A stretch of 64,000 nt of DNA from NCBI GenBank assembly GCA_964428655.1, contig CAYRYE010000001.1, positions 73,328-137,327 on the forward strand. The letters run 5' to 3'. The translations under genes and the position numbers were made by a program. Shown piece by piece: positions 3,527 through 51,843 of the stretch (within the stretch, counting starts at the first letter, position 1; the number at the start of each line of letters is the position of its first letter). The notes beneath the pieces are model-generated. The model was given only the letters and a program-made list of their open reading frames with translations. It ran no database searches and was not told the DNA's origin. The DNA is from an uncultured Gammaproteobacteria bacterium. Lineage in GTDB: Bacteria > Patescibacteriota > Microgenomatia > UBA12405 > JAHJSD01.

Positions 3527-3539
3527 GTAAAATTGGGTT

Positions 3540-3833
3540 ATGAAGAAAGCCTTGTTCTTATTGTTGGTTTTGTTGAGTATTTGGTTGTTTATTAGATTTG
3601 TCATTGGCGGAAATGAGGATTCATGGATATGTGTTGACAATCAATGGGTAAAGGATGGTAATCCCAGCTCACCAATGCCTGAAGAAGGTTGTGGACAAGA
3701 GAAATCTGAAAAATTAATAGGTGGCGACAAAGATGAACATGGCTGTTTGCTTATGGCTGGGTATACCTGGTGTGAGCCGAAGCAGAAATGTTTGCGGGAA
3801 TGGGAGGAAAACTGTGATGGAATCAGGGACTAG
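3540..3833 (+). CDS. small secreted/membrane-anchored Cys-rich protein
   Basis: N-terminal hydrophobic signal/TM (LFLLLVLLSIWLFIRFVIG) followed by 6 Cys in about 70 aa. Confidence 0.45.
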   Translation: MKKALFLLLVLLSIWLFIRFVIGGNEDSWICVDNQWVKDGNPSSPMPEEGCGQEKSEKLIGGDKDEHGCLLMAGYTWCEPKQKCLREWEENCDGIRD

Positions 3834-4295: not shown

Positions 4296-5123
4296 ATGGA
4301 TAGCAGAAGAATAGACTATTCGAAAATTTATTCTCCGAGCAGGTTGAGTATGTTTGCTCAGTGTCCCAAGCAATACTATTTTTACTATCTTGACCCTACT
4401 TATAGCCGAATGAAAAATGAGCTTAAAAAGCTGCCGGAGAATATTTGGAGCTTTCACACTTTGGGAAAAGCTGTTCATAATGCCATTACCCTTTTTTATC
4501 ATTCTCCTCCAGAACAAAGAACACTAGCGCAACTCAAAGAATATCTTAAGCAGGCTTGGCGCAGCGAAGTGATGTGGAATAAGAAGCCGCCCTTGGGGGA
4601 ATGGGGCGGATTTGAAAGCCTTGAACAAGAAAGAAAAATTTATGGAGAGGCGCTTCTAATGCTGGAAAACTTCTTTAAAATGGCAGAAATTGATTCTGAA
4701 TTGGAATACTTACCCACCCGAGATTTTAGACAGTCAATTGAAGATTACCAAAAATTAATCATTCCCCTTTCAGAAAATTTTGATATCAGTGGCAAGTTCG
4801 ACTTAATAGTTGGGGATAATAATTGCCTTCACATAATTGACTTTAAAACCAGCAAAAGAGAGGGTGATGATCATTTTCAATTAAGATTTTATAAACTCCT
4901 GGCTGAAAAGAATTTTAAAAAAGCGGTCAAAAAAGCCAGCTTTTACTTTTTGAGAGCTGGTAAGAAAAAAGAATTCGATTTGGAAAAAGAGGCAGAAAGA
5001 ATCAAAGAAGAAATATTAAATAAAATTAACCAGATAAAATTAACCAAAGATTTTGAGCAAAGACCAGGAAAACTTTGTAAGTTTTGCTTATTTAGAACTT
5101 TTTGTTCTGAGCAAGAAGGGTAA
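4296..5123 (+). CDS. PD-(D/E)XK nuclease, RecB/Cas4-like with Fe-S cysteines
   Basis: Has the Cas4/AddB-type arrangement: N-terminal Cys (FAQCPKQYY), a C-terminal CxxC...C (CKFCLFRTFC), a nuclease core GKFDLIV...HIIDFKTSK (D...D-x-K) and a QxxxY motif (FQLRFY). Confidence 0.7.
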   Translation: MDSRRIDYSKIYSPSRLSMFAQCPKQYYFYYLDPTYSRMKNELKKLPENIWSFHTLGKAVHNAITLFYHSPPEQRTLAQLKEYLKQAWRSEVMWNKKPPLGEWGGFESLEQERKIYGEALLMLENFFKMAEIDSELEYLPTRDFRQSIEDYQKLIIPLSENFDISGKFDLIVGDNNCLHIIDFKTSKREGDDHFQLRFYKLLAEKNFKKAVKKASFYFLRAGKKKEFDLEKEAERIKEEILNKINQIKLTKDFEQRPGKLCKFCLFRTFCSEQEG

Positions 5124-14130: not shown

Positions 14131-15186
14131 ATGTATAGTGACTTTATGAAAAGGGTTTTTCTTAAAAAACATGTTCGTGAAGTGTACTTTAAGAAAATAA
14201 AGGATGTTTCTAGGATAAGTTGGAGTATTTTAGCCAGAAAGTTGGGTTATTCAGAAAGGAATTTATTTGATTGGCGCATTGGAAAATATAGCATGCCAAA
14301 AAAGGTCATCACCGAGATAGAAAATTTATTTAGTGTTTTCCCCAAAGAATTAAGCGAGAAGTCAGAGTATTGGCACACAAAGATGGCTGGGAGATTGGGA
14401 GCGGTTACTAGAAATAAAAAGTATGGTAACCCGGGAACCAAAAAGGGTAGAAAAAAAGGTGGAGAGAGATCAATGATCACTCATAAACGTGATAATACTG
14501 GTTTTGTTATAGAAAAAAATATTGTTATCCCTAGAAGATCAACAATTCTTTCTGAATTCATTGGTATTGTGCTAGGTGATGGAAGTATTTCTAATTACCA
14601 GGTTACAATTTATCTAAATCTGTCTGATGATTATAACTATGCACTTAGTCTAATTTCTCTGGTCAAAGATTTATTTGGCATTGACGTTTCTGTCTTAAAA
14701 AGAAAAGAAATGTCTGTGATTGCTTTAATTATCTCTTCGAAGCAGTTAGTGAAATTTTTAGTTGGAAAAAACGATTTAACTATAGGTAATAAAGTTAAAA
14801 ACCAGATAAGGATTCCATCATGGATAATGACCAAGAAGTGCTGGCAAGCAGCTTGTTTACGGGGGCTTTTTGACACTGACGGTTGTGTCTATCTTGATAA
14901 TCATGTAATAAATAAAAAAGTCTATAAAAATTTAGGTTTGGTTTTTAGTTCTTCATCTCGGCCGCTACTTGAAGATATTAATGCTAGTTTGATTGTAAAT
15001 TGCTTTTCTCCTACCGACTCGCATGGTGGGAACAAAATAATGTTAAGGAGGGAAAATGAAATAACCAGATTTTTTGCTAAAATAAAACCTAGAAATCCCA
15101 AGCATACAAAAAGGTTTAGAAAGTTTATGAGGGAGAGGTACCGAAGTGGACACAACGGGACTGCCTCGAAAGCAGTTAGAGATTAA
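14131..15186 (+). CDS. LAGLIDADG homing endonuclease (double-motif) with N-terminal HTH-like region
   Basis: Two LAGLIDADG-type motifs about 100 aa apart, IGIVLGDGSI and LRGLFDTDGCVYLD. The last 55 nt of the ORF overlap tRNA-Ser(CGA). Confidence 0.75.
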   Translation: MYSDFMKRVFLKKHVREVYFKKIKDVSRISWSILARKLGYSERNLFDWRIGKYSMPKKVITEIENLFSVFPKELSEKSEYWHTKMAGRLGAVTRNKKYGNPGTKKGRKKGGERSMITHKRDNTGFVIEKNIVIPRRSTILSEFIGIVLGDGSISNYQVTIYLNLSDDYNYALSLISLVKDLFGIDVSVLKRKEMSVIALIISSKQLVKFLVGKNDLTIGNKVKNQIRIPSWIMTKKCWQAACLRGLFDTDGCVYLDNHVINKKVYKNLGLVFSSSSRPLLEDINASLIVNCFSPTDSHGGNKIMLRRENEITRFFAKIKPRNPKHTKRFRKFMRERYRSGHNGTASKAVRD

Positions 15187-19975: not shown

Positions 19976-20554
19976 ATGATAATAAGAAGTTTTATCGCCG
20001 TACCCTTGCCGGTTAAGACCAGAAATTTTTTAGCTAAGATTCAGGAACAGCTAAAACAGAAAGTATCCAAAAAAAGATTTAAGTGGGTGGAAAAGAAGAA
20101 TTTCCATCAGACATTGATCTTTCTTGGAAATGTTGATGAGAAGAGAATTCCCGAAATTAAGAATTTTATGAAGCAGTTGAGTAAAAATCGCCCCTTAGAG
20201 CTATCATTAGCACGGGTGAGTTTTTTCCCCGATCAGCGAAGGATAAAAATTGCCTGGGTTAGTTTGAGTGGTCAGACAGCCAGGCTTTCTCGGTTATGTC
20301 ATAAATTAAGAATGTCTCTTCAATTGGCGGGTTTCAGTTTTGACACTCGATTTTCACCTCATATTACTTTAGGCAGAACGCGTTCATTAAGTGCGAAATT
20401 GATTTTCTCTAAAAAATGTTTATCTGGAATTTATGATTTTCTTCATGAGAATGACACTTCTTTTATAGCCAACAAGGTGGTTTTTTATAAGAGTGAATTA
20501 ACACCCAGAGGTCCAGTCTATACTCCGATTTTTCAGGTGAAATTGACAAGTTAA
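19976..20554 (+). CDS. thpR: RNA 2',3'-cyclic phosphodiesterase / 2'-5' RNA ligase (ThpR/LigT, 2H family)
   Basis: Two H-x-T motifs (FHQTLIFLG and PHITLGR). The tracked ORF is extended upstream by read-through into the rpoD 3' end. The in-frame ATG at 19976 (MIIRSF...) is the likely start. Confidence 0.7.
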   Translation: MIIRSFIAVPLPVKTRNFLAKIQEQLKQKVSKKRFKWVEKKNFHQTLIFLGNVDEKRIPEIKNFMKQLSKNRPLELSLARVSFFPDQRRIKIAWVSLSGQTARLSRLCHKLRMSLQLAGFSFDTRFSPHITLGRTRSLSAKLIFSKKCLSGIYDFLHENDTSFIANKVVFYKSELTPRGPVYTPIFQVKLTS

Positions 20555-20584
20555 AACAATGTGATAGAATATATCCAAAAGCGC

Positions 20585-20864
20585 TGAGTTGGGAGAATGG
20601 GCCCAGCAAGTAAGGATTTTTCTTACGCGCTGCTTGGTGAATCGGTCCCGATAAGTGAATAGTATCGGGGAAAGTAGTCAAGCCGGCAGGAATCCGTGAT
20701 CATATTTCAGACCGATGTCAGTCCTGATGTTAGATCGGGAAATTAACGGAGTCGGTTACAGAGTCTGATACTGCAAAGTATTAGGAGAAGCAAGGTGGTA
20801 CCGTCTTCAAAAAAAGAAGGCCCTTGTCAGTCCCGATAAAATCGGGATTAGCAAGGGCTTTTTT
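20585..20864 (+). promoter_or_regulatory. candidate T-box riboswitch leader (Trp-specific)
   Basis: UUAGG...GGUGGUACCG (20794-20803) resembles the T-box/antiterminator core, with a UGGU bulge matching the A discriminator of the adjacent tRNA-Trp. The upstream stem holds an AAUGGG loop, a possible UGG specifier. It ends in an intrinsic terminator. Downstream lie tRNA-Trp and trpS. Confidence 0.45.
20820..20864 (+). terminator. intrinsic terminator (imperfect long hairpin + T6)
   Basis: GCCCTTG...TCCCGAT-AAAA-ATCGGGA...CAAGGGC followed by TTTTTT. The sequence CAAGG also occurs just upstream, giving an alternative antiterminator pairing. Confidence 0.7.
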
Positions 20865-20868
20865 ATTT

Positions 20869-20939
20869 GGGAACGTAGCTCAAGGGTAGAGTGCTCGTCT
20901 CCAAAACGAGTGGTGAGGGTTCAAGTCCCTCCGTTCCTA
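20869..20939 (+). tRNA. tRNA-Trp (anticodon CCA)
   Basis: Acceptor GGGAACG/CGTTCCT, anticodon stem CTCGT/ACGAG with loop CTCCAAA, T-arm GAGGG-TTCAAGT-CCCTC, discriminator A. No encoded CCA. Confidence 0.85.
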
Positions 20940-21033
20940 CTTATGAGAGAAAGATATATTTCATTACCAGAGCTAGTTACCGGTTCAAACAAAAATCCGG
21001 TTAGAGATACTCCAAGAAGGGAGGAGGTTTGGC

Positions 21034-22428
21034 ATGGCTTTATTGGTTTTCGGTCAAGCAATTGAAGCATCTAGAGTAACAGATAGTGATTTAATGAGAA
21101 CTATGCTTGCTCAGGTTGCTAAGCGGACAGATGAAAGAAGAATTCTGCAAGATTTTCTATTAACGGAGTCTACTAGAGGCACTAAGAGATTTTCTGAGAT
21201 TGAAACTGATTCTAGAGCTGTTGCTTTGCAAAGGGGAGACAATAGTTTTTCCTTTGATAAAGACCCTGTCTTTGATTTTTATATTGCCGAGATGAAACGG
21301 CAAAAAACAACAACTGGACTCTCTCTTTATCATGATTTGGTTTGTCAATTAATGCCGGCTGGGAACAAAAAACAGCGAAATCTTTTTCGCAAATTTTGTT
21401 TGGACAAAATTGAGCCTACTGATTTGCCAAGCACTTTTCCCAGCCAATTTAGAGCAGCTGAAATTTTAATTGCCGGTAAACTTCGAAGTGAAATTGGCAT
21501 TAGAGAGTACCGCGAACATGAATTGAGAAAAGAGGTTTTAAAGCAATTAAGGCAGGTTGCTCGAGATATGTTTTTTGCGATTAACAATGGTTTGCAAAGA
21601 GAACAAGCCCTTAACTTTATTTCTTTGATGTATGAATTAAGGAAAACACAAACAGCTTTACCAACAAATGAAGCAATGCTTAAAAAGAACATAATTAAGT
21701 GTTTACAACAGGATTCTCGATTGGATTTAATTCATATTAAATGTTTAAGGTATACTTATCCGCATGGTAGTCAAGTGGTTATTCTTGACCATTTTGAAGA
21801 TATTGAGGTGCCGGATAAGTTTGGCGGCAGTTATAAACCTCGAAGCGAAAAAAATATCTTTTCTCGTTTGCAAAAGCTTGTTTCTCTGTTCGAGAGATAT
21901 GGAGTATCAACAAACTTGTTAATATTAATAGCAGATCAGGATCTATATGATTATTTCCCTGATGGCGGCGGAGTTTTTTCAGGCAATGAAATAGAAGAGA
22001 TGTATAGAGCTATGGCCAGATACAGAAACGCGATTGTTGAAAAAGTAGGACCCAGTCATGTTGATTATTTACGTAGTTATCTGGAAAAAATTGATAGATT
22101 AGTACAATTTGATAAAACGAGATCAAAGGTAATTTTGGAGCTAGAATCTGGAGAAGGCAGGTTACCTGAAAGGTTTGTTGAAGAGAAAGTTGATTATCGC
22201 CATCGGTCCAACGCCGATATTTTAATAAAGAATTTAAAAAGGCGAGACATTAGAAAAAGGGTTTACGCTCAACTGGCGAGTATGCAGGCATTGAGGATAC
22301 TGGGGAATGAAAATGACCCTATCATAGTAATTGAGGATGATCGCGGAAATGATAACCAGTTTATTGGCGGCCATCGCAATTCCGCTTTGCCAGTTTATTT
22401 CACGAAATTACGAGACAAATTTGATTAG
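21034..22428 (+). CDS. large hypothetical protein (464 aa), no recognisable domain
   Basis: Long clean ORF with a good RBS (GGAGGAGG) 8 nt upstream. Located between tRNA-Trp and trpS. Confidence 0.6.
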   Translation: MALLVFGQAIEASRVTDSDLMRTMLAQVAKRTDERRILQDFLLTESTRGTKRFSEIETDSRAVALQRGDNSFSFDKDPVFDFYIAEMKRQKTTTGLSLYHDLVCQLMPAGNKKQRNLFRKFCLDKIEPTDLPSTFPSQFRAAEILIAGKLRSEIGIREYREHELRKEVLKQLRQVARDMFFAINNGLQREQALNFISLMYELRKTQTALPTNEAMLKKNIIKCLQQDSRLDLIHIKCLRYTYPHGSQVVILDHFEDIEVPDKFGGSYKPRSEKNIFSRLQKLVSLFERYGVSTNLLILIADQDLYDYFPDGGGVFSGNEIEEMYRAMARYRNAIVEKVGPSHVDYLRSYLEKIDRLVQFDKTRSKVILELESGEGRLPERFVEEKVDYRHRSNADILIKNLKRRDIRKRVYAQLASMQALRILGNENDPIIVIEDDRGNDNQFIGGHRNSALPVYFTKLRDKFD

Positions 22429-22495: not shown

Positions 22496-23518
22496 ATGAA
22501 TAAAGAAAGAATTTTTTCCGGAATTAAGCCGAGTGGTAGTTTGCAGGTTGATAGTAAAAACAAAACAATTGGCACTTTACATCTAGGTAATTACATCGGG
22601 GCAATTAAACAGTGGATAACTTTACAAAATGCTTATGATTGTGTTTATTGTGTTGTTGATCTTCATGCAATTACTGTTCCTCAGGATCCAAAAACCCTGA
22701 AAGAACGGATAAAACAAATTGCCGCTCTATTTATTGCTTCTGGAGTTGATCCCAAAAAGGCGGCCTTGTTAGTTCAGTCTCATAATCCTGATCACTGTGT
22801 TCTTGCTTGGATTTTAGATTGCGTTGCTTCGGTGGGTCAATTATCAAGGATGACCCAATACAAGTCAAAATCAAAAGAATTAAAGGGAAAAACTAGCGTT
22901 GGCCTTTTTAATTATCCAGTTTTGATGGCTGCAGACATTCTTTTATACCAAACTGACCTTGTTCCTGTTGGTGAAGACCAGGTCCAGCATGTTGAATTAA
23001 CCCGGGATCTAGCCCAAAAGTTTAATTCCCGGTTTGGCAAAGTCTTTAAATTGCCCAAAGTTAAAACTTTAAAAGTTGGGGCAAGGATTATGTCGTTGCA
23101 GAATCCAATGAGCAAAATGGATAAGTCTGACGAAGATCCTAATGGTACTGTTGATCTTTTAGATTCTGTCGATGAGATAAGAAGAAAGATTAAAATTGCT
23201 GTGACTGATTCGGGTAGAGAAGTACTTTTTCAAGAAGACAAGCTGGCGATTGCCAATTTGCTAACTATTTATTCTCACTGTTCTGGTTTATCAATTAAAG
23301 AAATTGAAAAAAAATATGCTAGCAAGGGATATAAAGAATTTAAAGAAGATTTGGCTGAAGTGGTAGTTGAAGCCTTAAGGCCGATTCAAAAAAAATATCA
23401 TCGGATTCGCAAGGATGAGAAGTATTTGAATCAAATTTTGGCAGAAGGGTTGCGAAAAGCAAAATCTATTTCTGAGAAAACTTTAAAGCAAGTTTATCAA
23501 GCAGTGGGATTGGGTTAA
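22496..23518 (+). CDS. trpS: tryptophan--tRNA ligase
   Basis: Class I HIGH-type motif TLHLGNYIG, the KMSKS-type motif MSKMDKS, and overall TrpRS length (340 aa). Confidence 0.85.
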   Translation: MNKERIFSGIKPSGSLQVDSKNKTIGTLHLGNYIGAIKQWITLQNAYDCVYCVVDLHAITVPQDPKTLKERIKQIAALFIASGVDPKKAALLVQSHNPDHCVLAWILDCVASVGQLSRMTQYKSKSKELKGKTSVGLFNYPVLMAADILLYQTDLVPVGEDQVQHVELTRDLAQKFNSRFGKVFKLPKVKTLKVGARIMSLQNPMSKMDKSDEDPNGTVDLLDSVDEIRRKIKIAVTDSGREVLFQEDKLAIANLLTIYSHCSGLSIKEIEKKYASKGYKEFKEDLAEVVVEALRPIQKKYHRIRKDEKYLNQILAEGLRKAKSISEKTLKQVYQAVGLG

Positions 23519-50263: not shown

Positions 50264-51199
50264 TCAGGTTTCTCTGATGCACTTCCCGACGGTAAATAGC
50301 GTGTCGCCAGTTCGTACTAAATCCCTGTCCTTAAGAACAATTAGCTGCCCCGTAAAGGGTGATTTAACTTTGCTTTTCTCAAAATTCTTAATAGAGACTA
50401 TTTCACCTATAATCTCGTTCTTTTTAACCTTATCCATTAAATTCTTTCTTGGGATGAAAAGCCCGGCGGTGTCTGTTTGTACCTGGTGCCTTTCAAAAAC
50501 TGGAATTTTGTTCTGTGCTAATCTGACTTTCTGATCTGTCATCCCAAGTGATGATAAGACATTGATTAATCCCCTTACGACTTTATCTAGCTGTTCCTCT
50601 CTAATTCGAAAATGTTCAGGCATCTCAAGAGCAAAATTAGTAATGCCTTTCTCTGCTAATTTTGGACCCAGCGACCCGGACAGCTTTATTTCCCTTTTTG
50701 TTTTAGAATCCAAACGCCAAATTATGTCCGGCTTGAAAGTCTTAATGAATCTTAGTGACTCTTTTTTTGTTTTACTACTGCCGTGATTCATGAAAATGGC
50801 TACGATTGGCGAGGGATCCTCAAAAGTGTGAAGATCAATAACCAGATTGCATTTTTGTGCTTCGACAAAAATTTTGGCCGCCAATCGAGACGTGAACTCC
50901 TTCTCTATTTTTCCCGGAAAAGCGCGATTTAGATCTTTGAGGCCAATCGGGTCCATTCTCTTTTTTAAACCCTGAGCTAATGGATTAGCAGCAGCGATGA
51001 TATTCAGCTCTCCAGTTTTTAGATCGAGTTTTTCTAATACCCTTCTAATTACGAATAATCCGCTAATTTCGTTTCCGTGAATTCCACACAGTAAAAGCAC
51101 CTTCGGTTTGCCCGAGCCAATTTTTATCAATGGAATGTTGATATCAATCGTTCCTATCTCACCAATTTTAAGTTTTGAAATTTTCTTTTCCATTTTCAT
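50264..51199 (-). CDS. succinylglutamate desuccinylase/aspartoacylase (AstE/AspA) family zinc hydrolase
   Basis: CGIHGNE zinc-binding motif near the N-terminus. 311 aa. Confidence 0.65.
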   Translation of the reverse strand: MKMEKKISKLKIGEIGTIDINIPLIKIGSGKPKVLLLCGIHGNEISGLFVIRRVLEKLDLKTGELNIIAAANPLAQGLKKRMDPIGLKDLNRAFPGKIEKEFTSRLAAKIFVEAQKCNLVIDLHTFEDPSPIVAIFMNHGSSKTKKESLRFIKTFKPDIIWRLDSKTKREIKLSGSLGPKLAEKGITNFALEMPEHFRIREEQLDKVVRGLINVLSSLGMTDQKVRLAQNKIPVFERHQVQTDTAGLFIPRKNLMDKVKKNEIIGEIVSIKNFEKSKVKSPFTGQLIVLKDRDLVRTGDTLFTVGKCIRET

Positions 51200-51843
51200 G
51201 TTTACGCTTGCTATAATGAAAAACCGCCCTCGTGAAAACGCCTCGTTTGGGTGTTCTCTTCAAGGACGGTTTTACCGTGATACCACCTCGATTTCCTCAA
51301 ATGTCACCACTTGAGGCTCACAGAGTGCTTTGCTTCTAGACCTAAACAACACACTCTTGCTCTATTACGGGAGCCCCCGTTCCAGCTTACTGCAAATGCT
51401 CTTCAGCTGGACAGCTCAAGAGGGGTAATTCGATTAGTTTATTCGTCAAGCTTGCAACAACCGCTTGATCTCTAAATGTCACTAAACCTTTCTACTTAGC
51501 CTTCTGTCAATGCTTTTGATTATTTTCGTATTCATTCTACACTAACTAAGTTCCTTGTCAAGGAACTTGCAACTGGGGCTTTATGATTTGGGCAGGGAGG
51601 ATTGGGTTTATAGGGATGGTTTGGTTTCCCATGATTCAGAAGCAGGTTTGCTAGACTATCTGGCGAGATGGCTCGTTGTCTAAGGCAAGGCAGTGTTCTA
51701 TTGCCTTCCGAGCAAACATCCTATAGTTTGACAATGATGATTAGACGTGTTATTATTCTTTTTGTTAGCTTTAAATATTGATCAGTAGTTAATACTGATT
51801 TGAGTCGGTTTATTTGGTTTAGGTATTCGTATCTTCTCCTTTT

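Follow-up and report, generated by a model that had tools for sequence, protein, structure and literature searches.

Reviews define T-boxes by an S-turn, a pseudoknot involving the F-box, the succession RAG-Stem III-AA and a 7-nucleotide (nt) bulge, and the RAG before Stem III as well as the AA after it are described as hallmarks. A reduced variant is known from the ileS leaders of Actinobacteria (M. tuberculosis, N. farcinica), whose ultrashort-Stem-I T-boxes act at the level of translation (Sherwood et al. 2015, via PMC7583486); specifiers exposed in an apical loop belong to such short Stem I elements (PMC7583486). The leader analysed here stems from a 64,000-nt stretch of Patescibacteria-like DNA (contig CAYRYE010000001.1; the whole stretch is referred to as the window, and all coordinates are those of the window unless a related locus, denoted by an L number, is named) and occupies about 20577-20868 on the (+) strand. 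It is located between thpR, which codes for a LigT-type phosphoesterase and ends at 20554, and a tRNA-Trp(CCA) gene starting at 20869, within a gap of 314 nt that contains no convincing open reading frame (ORF). There is little doubt that this leader is a T-box, and its features mark it as a conserved, Trp-specific attenuator with a compact architecture that Rfam does not cover, the function being predicted from sequence. The T-box interpretation given in an initial annotation of the same stretch is thereby supported, apart from two details, the type of the specifier loop and the distance of the tRNA gene from the T-run, which were wrong. The short Stem I design had not been recognised there and is more unusual than the placement in front of a tRNA gene.

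The 5′ half of the leader forms a decoding domain whose base is helix P0 (20580-20631, AGCGC 20580-20584 paired with GCGCU 20627-20631), covarying at 3/3 positions. In the place of Stem I, a 20-nt hairpin is found between P0 and Stem II. This ultrashort Stem I (20588-20607) consists of six base pairs, GUUGGG/CCCAGC, closed by the 8-nt apical loop AGAAUGGG (20594-20601), which reads A-GAA-UGG-G; the hairpin is unchanged among 11 distinct leaders. UGG at 20598-20600 is proposed to be the Trp specifier, with GAA before it and a purine after it, in a loop that is invariant across the family. GAA-codon-purine is the usual motif of specifier loops, as in the conventional trpS T-box of L002, which carries GAA-UGG-A in a normal Stem I. 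The initial annotation had assigned a possible UGG specifier to an AAUGGG internal loop; AAUGGG is part of the 8-nt apical loop and not of an internal one. P0 additionally encloses a further hairpin, hp2 (20610-20626), which is specific to one clade, namely the window together with L084, L085 and L086; its sequences differ there, and the pairing is kept in each case.

Stem II (20632-20683) has a lower helix, GCUUGG/UCAAGC, in which 6/6 pairs have changed on both sides, followed by an S-turn formed by UGAA (20638-20641) and AGUAG (20673-20677). Its GAA/AGUA pattern agrees with the S-turn of the Rfam T-box consensus and with that depicted in a review (PMC7583486). The apical extension of Stem II (20647-20669) is specific to the window. 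Adjacent to Stem II, Stem IIA (CGG/CCG, with an F-box-like CCGUGA) and the IIB pseudoknot together span 20684-20708. Stem IIA is invariant and IIB covaries: the loop GGAAU (20689-20693) pairs with AUUUC (20704-20708), 98.3% of the IIB cells are paired, and 4/5 pairs have changed on both sides, e.g. from GAAGU/ACUUC to GCUGU/ACAGC. An extra hairpin, Px (20710-20757, GACCGAU.../...AGUCGGUU), shows changes on both sides in 3/4 core pairs, has a loop that opens with a conserved AUGUCA and is found in every family member, L091 among them; no named element of the canonical T-box corresponds to it.

The 3′ half begins with the purine string ACAGAG, which contains the RAG, followed by Stem III (UCUGAUACU-GCAA-AGUAUUAGG) and an A-rich linker (20758-20789 in total, purine string and Stem III 20758-20785). 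All 9/9 pairs of Stem III have changed on both sides, AGAAG is located 3′ of it, and the same pattern is found in all members. The hallmark sequence on which the T-box had been proposed, GUAUUAGG...GCAAGGUGGUACCG, is indeed present at 20777-20803. The antiterminator (20790-20827) has the sequence GCAAGG-UGGUACC-GUCUUC-A7-GAAGGC-CCUUGU, in which helices A1 (GCAAGG/CCUUGU) and A2 (GUCUUC/GAAGGC) are separated by the 7-nt bulge UGGUACC (20796-20802). A1 is invariant and 4/4 pairs of A2 have changed on both sides. Folding of the leader reproduces the canonical antiterminator shape at −10.8 kcal/mol alongside a competing intrinsic terminator with U-tract (20812-20868), the hairpin of which (20812-20864) amounts to −33.6 to −34.6 kcal/mol, with z = −8.8 against shuffled sequences. 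The 5′ arm of the terminator reuses GAAGGCCCUUG, i.e. the 3′ strands of A2 and A1, and its 3′ arm is CAAGGGC, so that the terminator (−34.6 kcal/mol) and the antiterminator (−10.8 kcal/mol) are mutually exclusive, as the switch sketched in the initial annotation had implied. The tract UUUUUUAUUU closes the terminator and is directly followed by the first nucleotide of tRNA-Trp. The same terminator layout is seen in all relatives, including those ahead of protein genes.

Three similar small hairpins of the pattern YCCYGAU...AUCGGGR are observed at 20647-20669, 20722-20740 and 20829-20847, where they constitute window-specific apical extensions of Stem II, Px and the terminator. They contain direct repeats (GUCAGUCCYGAU, UCRGUCCCGAUAA). 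A dispersed repeat was considered and rejected, as none occurs elsewhere in the 64-kb window above chance, which suggests an origin by local duplication.

Taken by itself, the 9-mer GGTGGNAYC does not exceed chance expectation (2 found, 1.6 expected), and the architecture of the whole leader is far above it. The four window-clade leaders share the invariant hairpin GUUGGG-AGAAUGGG-CCCARC. Its 18-mer gave 15 matches in metagenome contigs, namely 10 T-box leaders, 8 of them distinct, and 5 chance matches in coding DNA. The 8 distinct metagenomic leaders are promoter-driven and possess the same 5′ hairpin, T-box core and terminator. A covariance model, R1, built only from these 8 leaders, with the window and its close relatives left out, aligns to the window leader over its full length (20577-20826) with 101.2 bits and E ~1e-31. 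L084, L085 and L086 score 93-117 bits with R1, and a canonical T-box present elsewhere in the window 54 bits. In the alignment derived from the model, to which the IIB pseudoknot was added, 93.5% of the cells are paired, compared with 71.9% after shuffling (0/500 as high) and 30-45% with partners slid, and 29/39 pairs have changed on both sides across the leader family. Since Stem I and hp2 of the window clade are not positioned correctly in this alignment, Stem I was excluded from the formal count. Helices parsed by hand form 93-100% canonical pairs with their own 3′ strand versus 40-76% with the strands of other members. Covariation supports every variable helix.

A regular-expression screen of 80 trpS loci, which had suggested that Patescibacteria have no trpS T-box, was too strict: R1 finds T-box-like leaders in L031 and L002 that the screen had missed, and L031 was passed over even by a structure-based rescan of the trpS loci. 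In L031, a Patescibacteria metagenome-assembled genome (MAG), the leader (4410-4628) has the core GGGUGGCAAC and a short hairpin and is positioned upstream of a 57-aa ORF that precedes trpS. In L002 (220-352), a conventional reduced Stem I with GAA-UGG-A is combined with a UGGUACC bulge 74 nt before trpS. The contig of one Trp member, L100, carries a second compact T-box (14211-14386, (−) strand) with P0, a GUUUGA/GA junction, a 4-bp hairpin, Stem II, IIA/B, an AUGUCA hairpin and a UGGUACC bulge. The apical loop of this element, AGUCGCGAU, differs from that of the Trp leaders. Downstream of the element are a 434-aa ORF without known function and an M20 peptidase, which give no clue to the amino acid and therefore do not calibrate the specifier. 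Since this second compact T-box carries a different apical loop, the short Stem I design seems not to be restricted to Trp.

Compared with canonical transcriptional T-boxes (RF00230, the Bacillus tyrS and trpS leaders, and the element at 51259-51519 of the window), the leader is alike in the S-turn, the IIA/B pseudoknot with CCGUNA, the succession RAG-Stem III-AA, the 7-nt UGGNACC bulge between A1 and A2, the competing terminator, the GAA-codon-purine motif and the regulation of trpS. In contrast to them, it has no long Stem I, no AG bulge, no internal specifier loop and no distal loop, i.e. none of the platform that stacks on the tRNA elbow; the apical loop of the 6-bp hairpin carries the codon instead, and the extra hairpins Px (all members) and hp2 (window clade) are present. 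Furthermore, the first downstream gene is a tRNA gene, and the family reaches 25-54 bits with RF00230 against a gathering score of 93. The leader thus displays the T-box features that can be tested in silico and at the same time lies outside the canonical RF00230 architecture. As in the ileS T-boxes, the specifier is displayed by the apical loop of a shortened Stem I, and an elbow-binding platform is absent. Most family members contain a GA/GA motif at the base of Stem I, where P0-(3-4 nt)-GA stands opposite GA-P0′, which would be compatible with a kink-turn (K-turn). Whereas ileS T-boxes sequester the Shine-Dalgarno sequence, the present leader has an intrinsic terminator with a U-run, which points to a transcriptional mode of action. 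The ileS elements are Ile-specific (AUC), actinobacterial and located before ileS; here, the codon is UGG for Trp, the host is Patescibacteria-like, and the element precedes tRNA-Trp and trpS. Unlike the targets of the ileS T-boxes, the first gene behind the leader, being a tRNA, does not have a ribosome-binding site.

Two further systems resemble the locus in part. In the E. coli operon thrU-tyrU-glyT-thrT-tufB, tRNA genes are co-transcribed with a protein gene. The arrangement is alike in that the tRNA is located upstream of the messenger part and freed by RNase P and 3′ processing, but these operons are not known to be controlled by a riboswitch that senses the same tRNA. The B. subtilis rtpA-ycbK anti-TRAP operon has a Trp T-box with a UGG specifier ahead of genes that do not code for synthetases. 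As proposed here, uncharged tRNA-Trp is read by UGG in favour of Trp-related genes beyond trpS, whereas the rtpA-ycbK leader possesses a canonical long Stem I and its regulated unit is not known to comprise a tRNA gene.

Trp specificity is indicated by the genes behind the family leaders, which are Trp-linked while the UGG loop remains invariant; the pairing with the anticodon itself is predicted. In L105 the leader is followed directly by trpS, in L098 and L108 by an AstE/AspA-like ORF and then trpS, in L099 and L100 by a TrpD-family protein and then a nucleoside hydrolase, and in L101 by a GCS2-like protein and a class-I GATase. The bulge provides additional support, since its variable base is complementary to the discriminator of tRNA-Trp in the window (U20799/A73, in agreement with the UGGU-ACCA pairing put forward in the initial annotation), in L091 and L096 (both U/A73) and in L101 (C/G73). 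In two of these loci a tRNA-Trp gene is outside T-box control: that of L096 (8151-8222) stands at the end of the operon with its own TTGCGT-17-TATAAA promoter, and that of L101 (4838-4913, (−) strand; G73, CCA encoded) is found just upstream of the T-box promoter.

The gap is regarded as a leader with its own promoter because a strong sigma-70-type site, TTGACA-16-TGnTAGAAT, is located at 20543-20570 (+), with 11/12 consensus matches and an extended −10 element. This site is an addition to the 300-nt untranslated stretch of the initial annotation. A promoter scan finds equivalent sites ahead of the leaders of L085 (11/12), L086 (10/12) and L096 (11/12), and in the other family members a promoter ahead of the leader was likewise recognised by eye. 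Inside the leaders of the window, L085 and L086, the consensus scan detects no promoter-like site, the only strong one being upstream of the leader, and no −35/−10-like hexamers are conserved in the aligned leaders.

Behind the leader, tRNA-Trp (20869-20940, (+) strand; ARAGORN, Rfam tRNA 69.7 bits) has the anticodon CCA, a G1.U72 pair and A73, and its CCA end is not encoded. It starts 4 nt (AUUU) after a T6 run and not 2 nt after it, as had been stated, and is presumed to be both the ligand and the first regulated gene. The tRNA-Trp genes of the clade (window and L084-L093) share G1.U72, except for G1-C72 in L091, as well as A73 and the missing CCA. Bacterial tRNA-Trp normally has G73, an identity element for tryptophanyl-tRNA synthetase (TrpRS), and the A73 type is noteworthy. 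In the window, tRNA-Trp is followed by ORF464 (21034-22428, (+) strand), which codes for a protein without known function, and by trpS (22496-23518, (+) strand; Pfam tRNA-synt_1b, 1.5e-67), presumed to be the last gene of the regulated unit. This order had been reported before and is confirmed here, being syntenic in the relatives. ORF464 directly follows tRNA-Trp in 10/10 loci and is located between tRNA-Trp and trpS in the clade; trpS comes next wherever the contig extends, except in L091, where an NYN-domain gene takes its place. The contigs of the ORF464 relatives keep the order dnaG-rpoD-thpR-gap-ORF464-trpS-tpiA-pgk. No terminator separates tRNA-Trp from ORF464, and the distance between ORF464 and trpS is 67 nt in the window and about 2-36 nt in relatives. 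The nearest relatives of the window's TrpRS are mostly Patescibacteria MAGs at no more than 60% identity, on which the taxonomic placement is based.

The orthologous gaps of L084, L085, L086, L091 and L093 contain the T-box core, the terminator and tRNA-Trp 2-4 nt after the T-run, and in L110, found via a more distant ORF464 homolog, the T-tract runs straight into tRNA-Trp. Thus, the conservation that was to be expected of a genuine element is observed, and the U-run abuts tRNA-Trp (0-4 nt) in seven loci, the ORF464 homologs of which are at most 39-45% identical. In L110 (422-598), the abutting tRNA-Trp seems to be interrupted within its anticodon loop: about 125 nt with complementary flanking arms, CCGCCUGCC and GGCGGGCAGG, are inserted behind CUCC and hold a complete second tRNA-Trp(CCA) gene (471-542). 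Possible explanations are a nested tRNA, an element resembling an intron, or an artefact of the assembly.

ORF464 has no match in Pfam or NCBIfam. It has 8 relatives in a word-indexed protein collection, and a profile search against 1.84 billion representatives yields 83. The AlphaFold2 model of the protein (mean predicted local distance difference test score, pLDDT, 82.6) is closest in Foldseek to the catalytic domains of tyrosyl-tRNA synthetase (TyrRS) and to cyclodipeptide synthases with marginal E values (best E 4e-3, template modelling (TM) score about 0.5 on the target), and sequence profiles give no support for this likeness. Cyclodipeptide synthases use aminoacyl-tRNAs.

The relatives L088-L090 and L109, which do not have the T-box, carry a different conserved, promoter-driven leader before tRNA-Trp-ORF464-trpS (L088 3721-3854; L109 about 810-978). 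It comprises a hairpin YUUGG-U-GGC...GCC-UCAAG followed by CGGGAG, which is able to pair over a long range with the 5′ arm of a terminator; this pairing competes with the terminator, which ends about 26 nt before tRNA-Trp. The terminator of L088-L090 had been taken for that of the upstream gene, a view that was revised after a dedicated promoter was found in L109 together with a conserved leader that has alternative folds. By its sequence, this leader looks attenuator-like. As the T-box-less relatives also carry a promoter-driven leader in which a pairing competes with a terminator, attenuation ahead of the tRNA-Trp operon seems to be a feature of the clade.

From these features, the following course of events is proposed. 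Transcription would start from the promoter at 20543-20570, and the nascent leader would fold into P0, the 6-bp Stem I displaying GAA-UGG-G, Stem II with its S-turn and the IIA/B pseudoknot. Through UGG, this decoding domain would pair with the anticodon CCA of tRNA-Trp. In the case of an uncharged tRNA, the free 3′ ACCA of the bound molecule would pair with UGGU of the bulge and thereby stabilise the weak antiterminator against the strong terminator, so that RNA polymerase would read through into tRNA-Trp and then into ORF464 and trpS. Cleavage by RNase P at the 5′ end of the tRNA would free the leader, and the leader-tRNA-mRNA precursor would be processed by this enzyme together with other nucleases. 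When charged tRNA-Trp is scarce, synthesis of the tRNA, of the synthetase and of the co-regulated protein without known function would consequently rise, as in a homeostatic module. That the leader attenuates the downstream unit is, judging from its sequence, quite probable. The inclusion of tRNA-Trp in T-box control is argued for by the U-run that abuts the tRNA in seven loci, by the only strong promoter-like site being upstream of the leader (window, L085, L086), and by the lack of a terminator between tRNA-Trp and ORF464 together with the short distances between ORF464 and trpS; the supply of tRNA-Trp would thus rather likely depend on the T-box.

In the most far-reaching version of this scheme, the locus would be a self-referential module of tRNA homeostasis, in which an elbow-free short-Stem-I T-box gates its own ligand together with TrpRS and ORF464. 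The gated tRNA-Trp gene would possibly be the organism's only copy, and ORF464 has a predicted fold that may resemble enzymes using aminoacyl-tRNAs. This version is tentative, and we consider it somewhat less probable than not. If true, the module would be the founding example of unannotated compact transcriptional T-boxes in Patescibacteria for several amino acids.

A number of observations weigh against the T-box reading or against parts of it. A scan at the Rfam gathering thresholds calls no T-box at this locus, and with permissive filters RF00230 aligns to 20651-20828 with just 25.5 bits against the gathering score of 93. The covariance-model check suggested in the initial annotation thus stays below threshold, while the antiterminator is aligned near-perfectly (model positions 180-219) and a 66-nt core of Stem I is skipped. 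Since the permissive alignment traces the loss of score to the missing Stem I, the negative result of the gathering scan is not decisive: the low score reflects the missing canonical long Stem I and not the absence of a T-box. Within the family, eight members reach 29-54 bits and L091 gives no match. Concerning the discriminator, L084, L085, L086 and L093 combine a UGGC bulge with an adjacent A73 tRNA (L084 about 240-246, UGGCACA; L085 about 3708-3714, UGGCAAC; L086 about 3528-3534, UGGCACA; L093 about 26-32, UGGCACC), which results in a C.A mismatch, and in L084, L085 and L086 the 3′ half of the bulge is non-canonical as well. Because of these four relatives, the covariation rule of the bulge is not universal in the clade; the mismatch could be tolerated, could reflect relaxed function, or could be explained by a different tRNA with G73 encoded at another site of the genomes concerned. 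A K-turn would be expected where a short Stem I begins, but none is apparent in the window, in which the junction is UGA/AA and hp2 is inserted. Finally, transcriptional T-boxes generally need the contact of a long Stem I with the tRNA elbow according to reviews, which puts the kinetic competence of the short-Stem-I design in question.

The T-box might be real and tRNA-Trp nevertheless not meaningfully regulated, if an unrecognised promoter within the leader or a second tRNA-Trp gene supplied the tRNA. The switch would then tune ORF464 and trpS only, and the tRNA would mainly serve as a processing site. The count of tRNA-Trp genes covers the 64-kb window, and the promoter scan is consensus-based, so that atypical promoters would escape it; indeed, it also finds no promoter before tRNA-Trp in the T-box-less L088. 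The tRNA-Trp genes of L096 and L101 are near a Trp T-box but outside its control, that of L096 with TTGCGT-17-TATAAA just upstream, and placing a terminator of −34.6 kcal/mol before an essential tRNA that may be encoded only once would seem hazardous. In seven loci, however, the abutting U-run leaves no room for a promoter between terminator and tRNA, the leaders of the window, L085 and L086 contain no promoter-like site, and the aligned leaders have no conserved −35/−10-like hexamers, which makes this alternative unlikely. A decaying or inactive relic, whose terminator leaks constitutively or only ends thpR and whose likeness to T-boxes is due to descent, is very improbable. The non-canonical bulges of L084, L085 and L086 (UGGCACA, UGGCAAC) with their C.A mismatch to A73 and the disruption of the K-turn by hp2 in the window clade would fit a relic, but compensatory changes keep every helix although the ORF464 proteins are just 39-45% identical, the leader has a dedicated strong promoter, the bulge UGGUACC of the window is fully canonical and matched to A73, and the specifier loop is invariant. 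Similarly, the leader might bind tRNA-Trp and act post-transcriptionally, on RNase P or 3′-end processing of the pre-tRNA or on mRNA stability. Physically, it is the 5′ leader of a pre-tRNA, an arrangement for which the literature searched gives no precedent, and RNase III-dependent processing is known for the S. aureus met T-box leader (PMC7913692). All members retain, though, an intrinsic terminator with U-run that cannot form together with the antiterminator; this argues for control of termination and renders a mainly post-transcriptional role hardly credible.

Full-text literature searches, with most subscription journals outside their reach, returned no T-box paper on Patescibacteria or the Candidate Phyla Radiation (CPR), no description of a T-box upstream of a tRNA gene and no precedent for a transcriptional T-box with a short Stem I; the initial annotation had called it unusual for a T-box to read its cognate tRNA gene on the same transcript, and this holds within the literature that could be searched. 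The compact design joins an apical-loop specifier to an intrinsic terminator, and reviews tie such a specifier only to the translational actinobacterial ileS elements. If functional, the leader makes the kinetic argument, by which a long Stem I is needed for fast capture of tRNA, directly testable. A T-box gating the gene of its own ligand would constitute a new regulatory topology, with positive feedback on the tRNA that is balanced by the co-expressed synthetase. In the database TBDB, RF00230 serves to detect transcriptional T-boxes, and an ileS model restricted to Actinobacteria serves for translational ones. As Rfam-based pipelines require 93 bits and the family attains 25-54, T-box regulation is probably under-annotated in Patescibacteria and in other genomes of similarly small size, and R1 offers a way to find more compact T-boxes. 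Furthermore, the Trp T-box regulon flags ORF464 and the AstE/AspA-like, TrpD-like and GCS2-like proteins as Trp-linked, which gives leads for gene function in organisms lacking most biosynthesis.

The canonical T-box of the window at 51259-51519 ((−) strand) attains 111 bits with RF00230 and has the specifier region GAAUUACC and the bulge UGGUAUC. It precedes not an aminoacyl-tRNA synthetase gene but a gene for a 311-aa protein of the AstE/AspA family (50264-51199, (−) strand), i.e. of succinylglutamate desuccinylases and aspartoacylases. A member of the same family is found between the Trp T-box and trpS in L098 and L108, which hints at T-box-controlled amino-acid salvage in these organisms.

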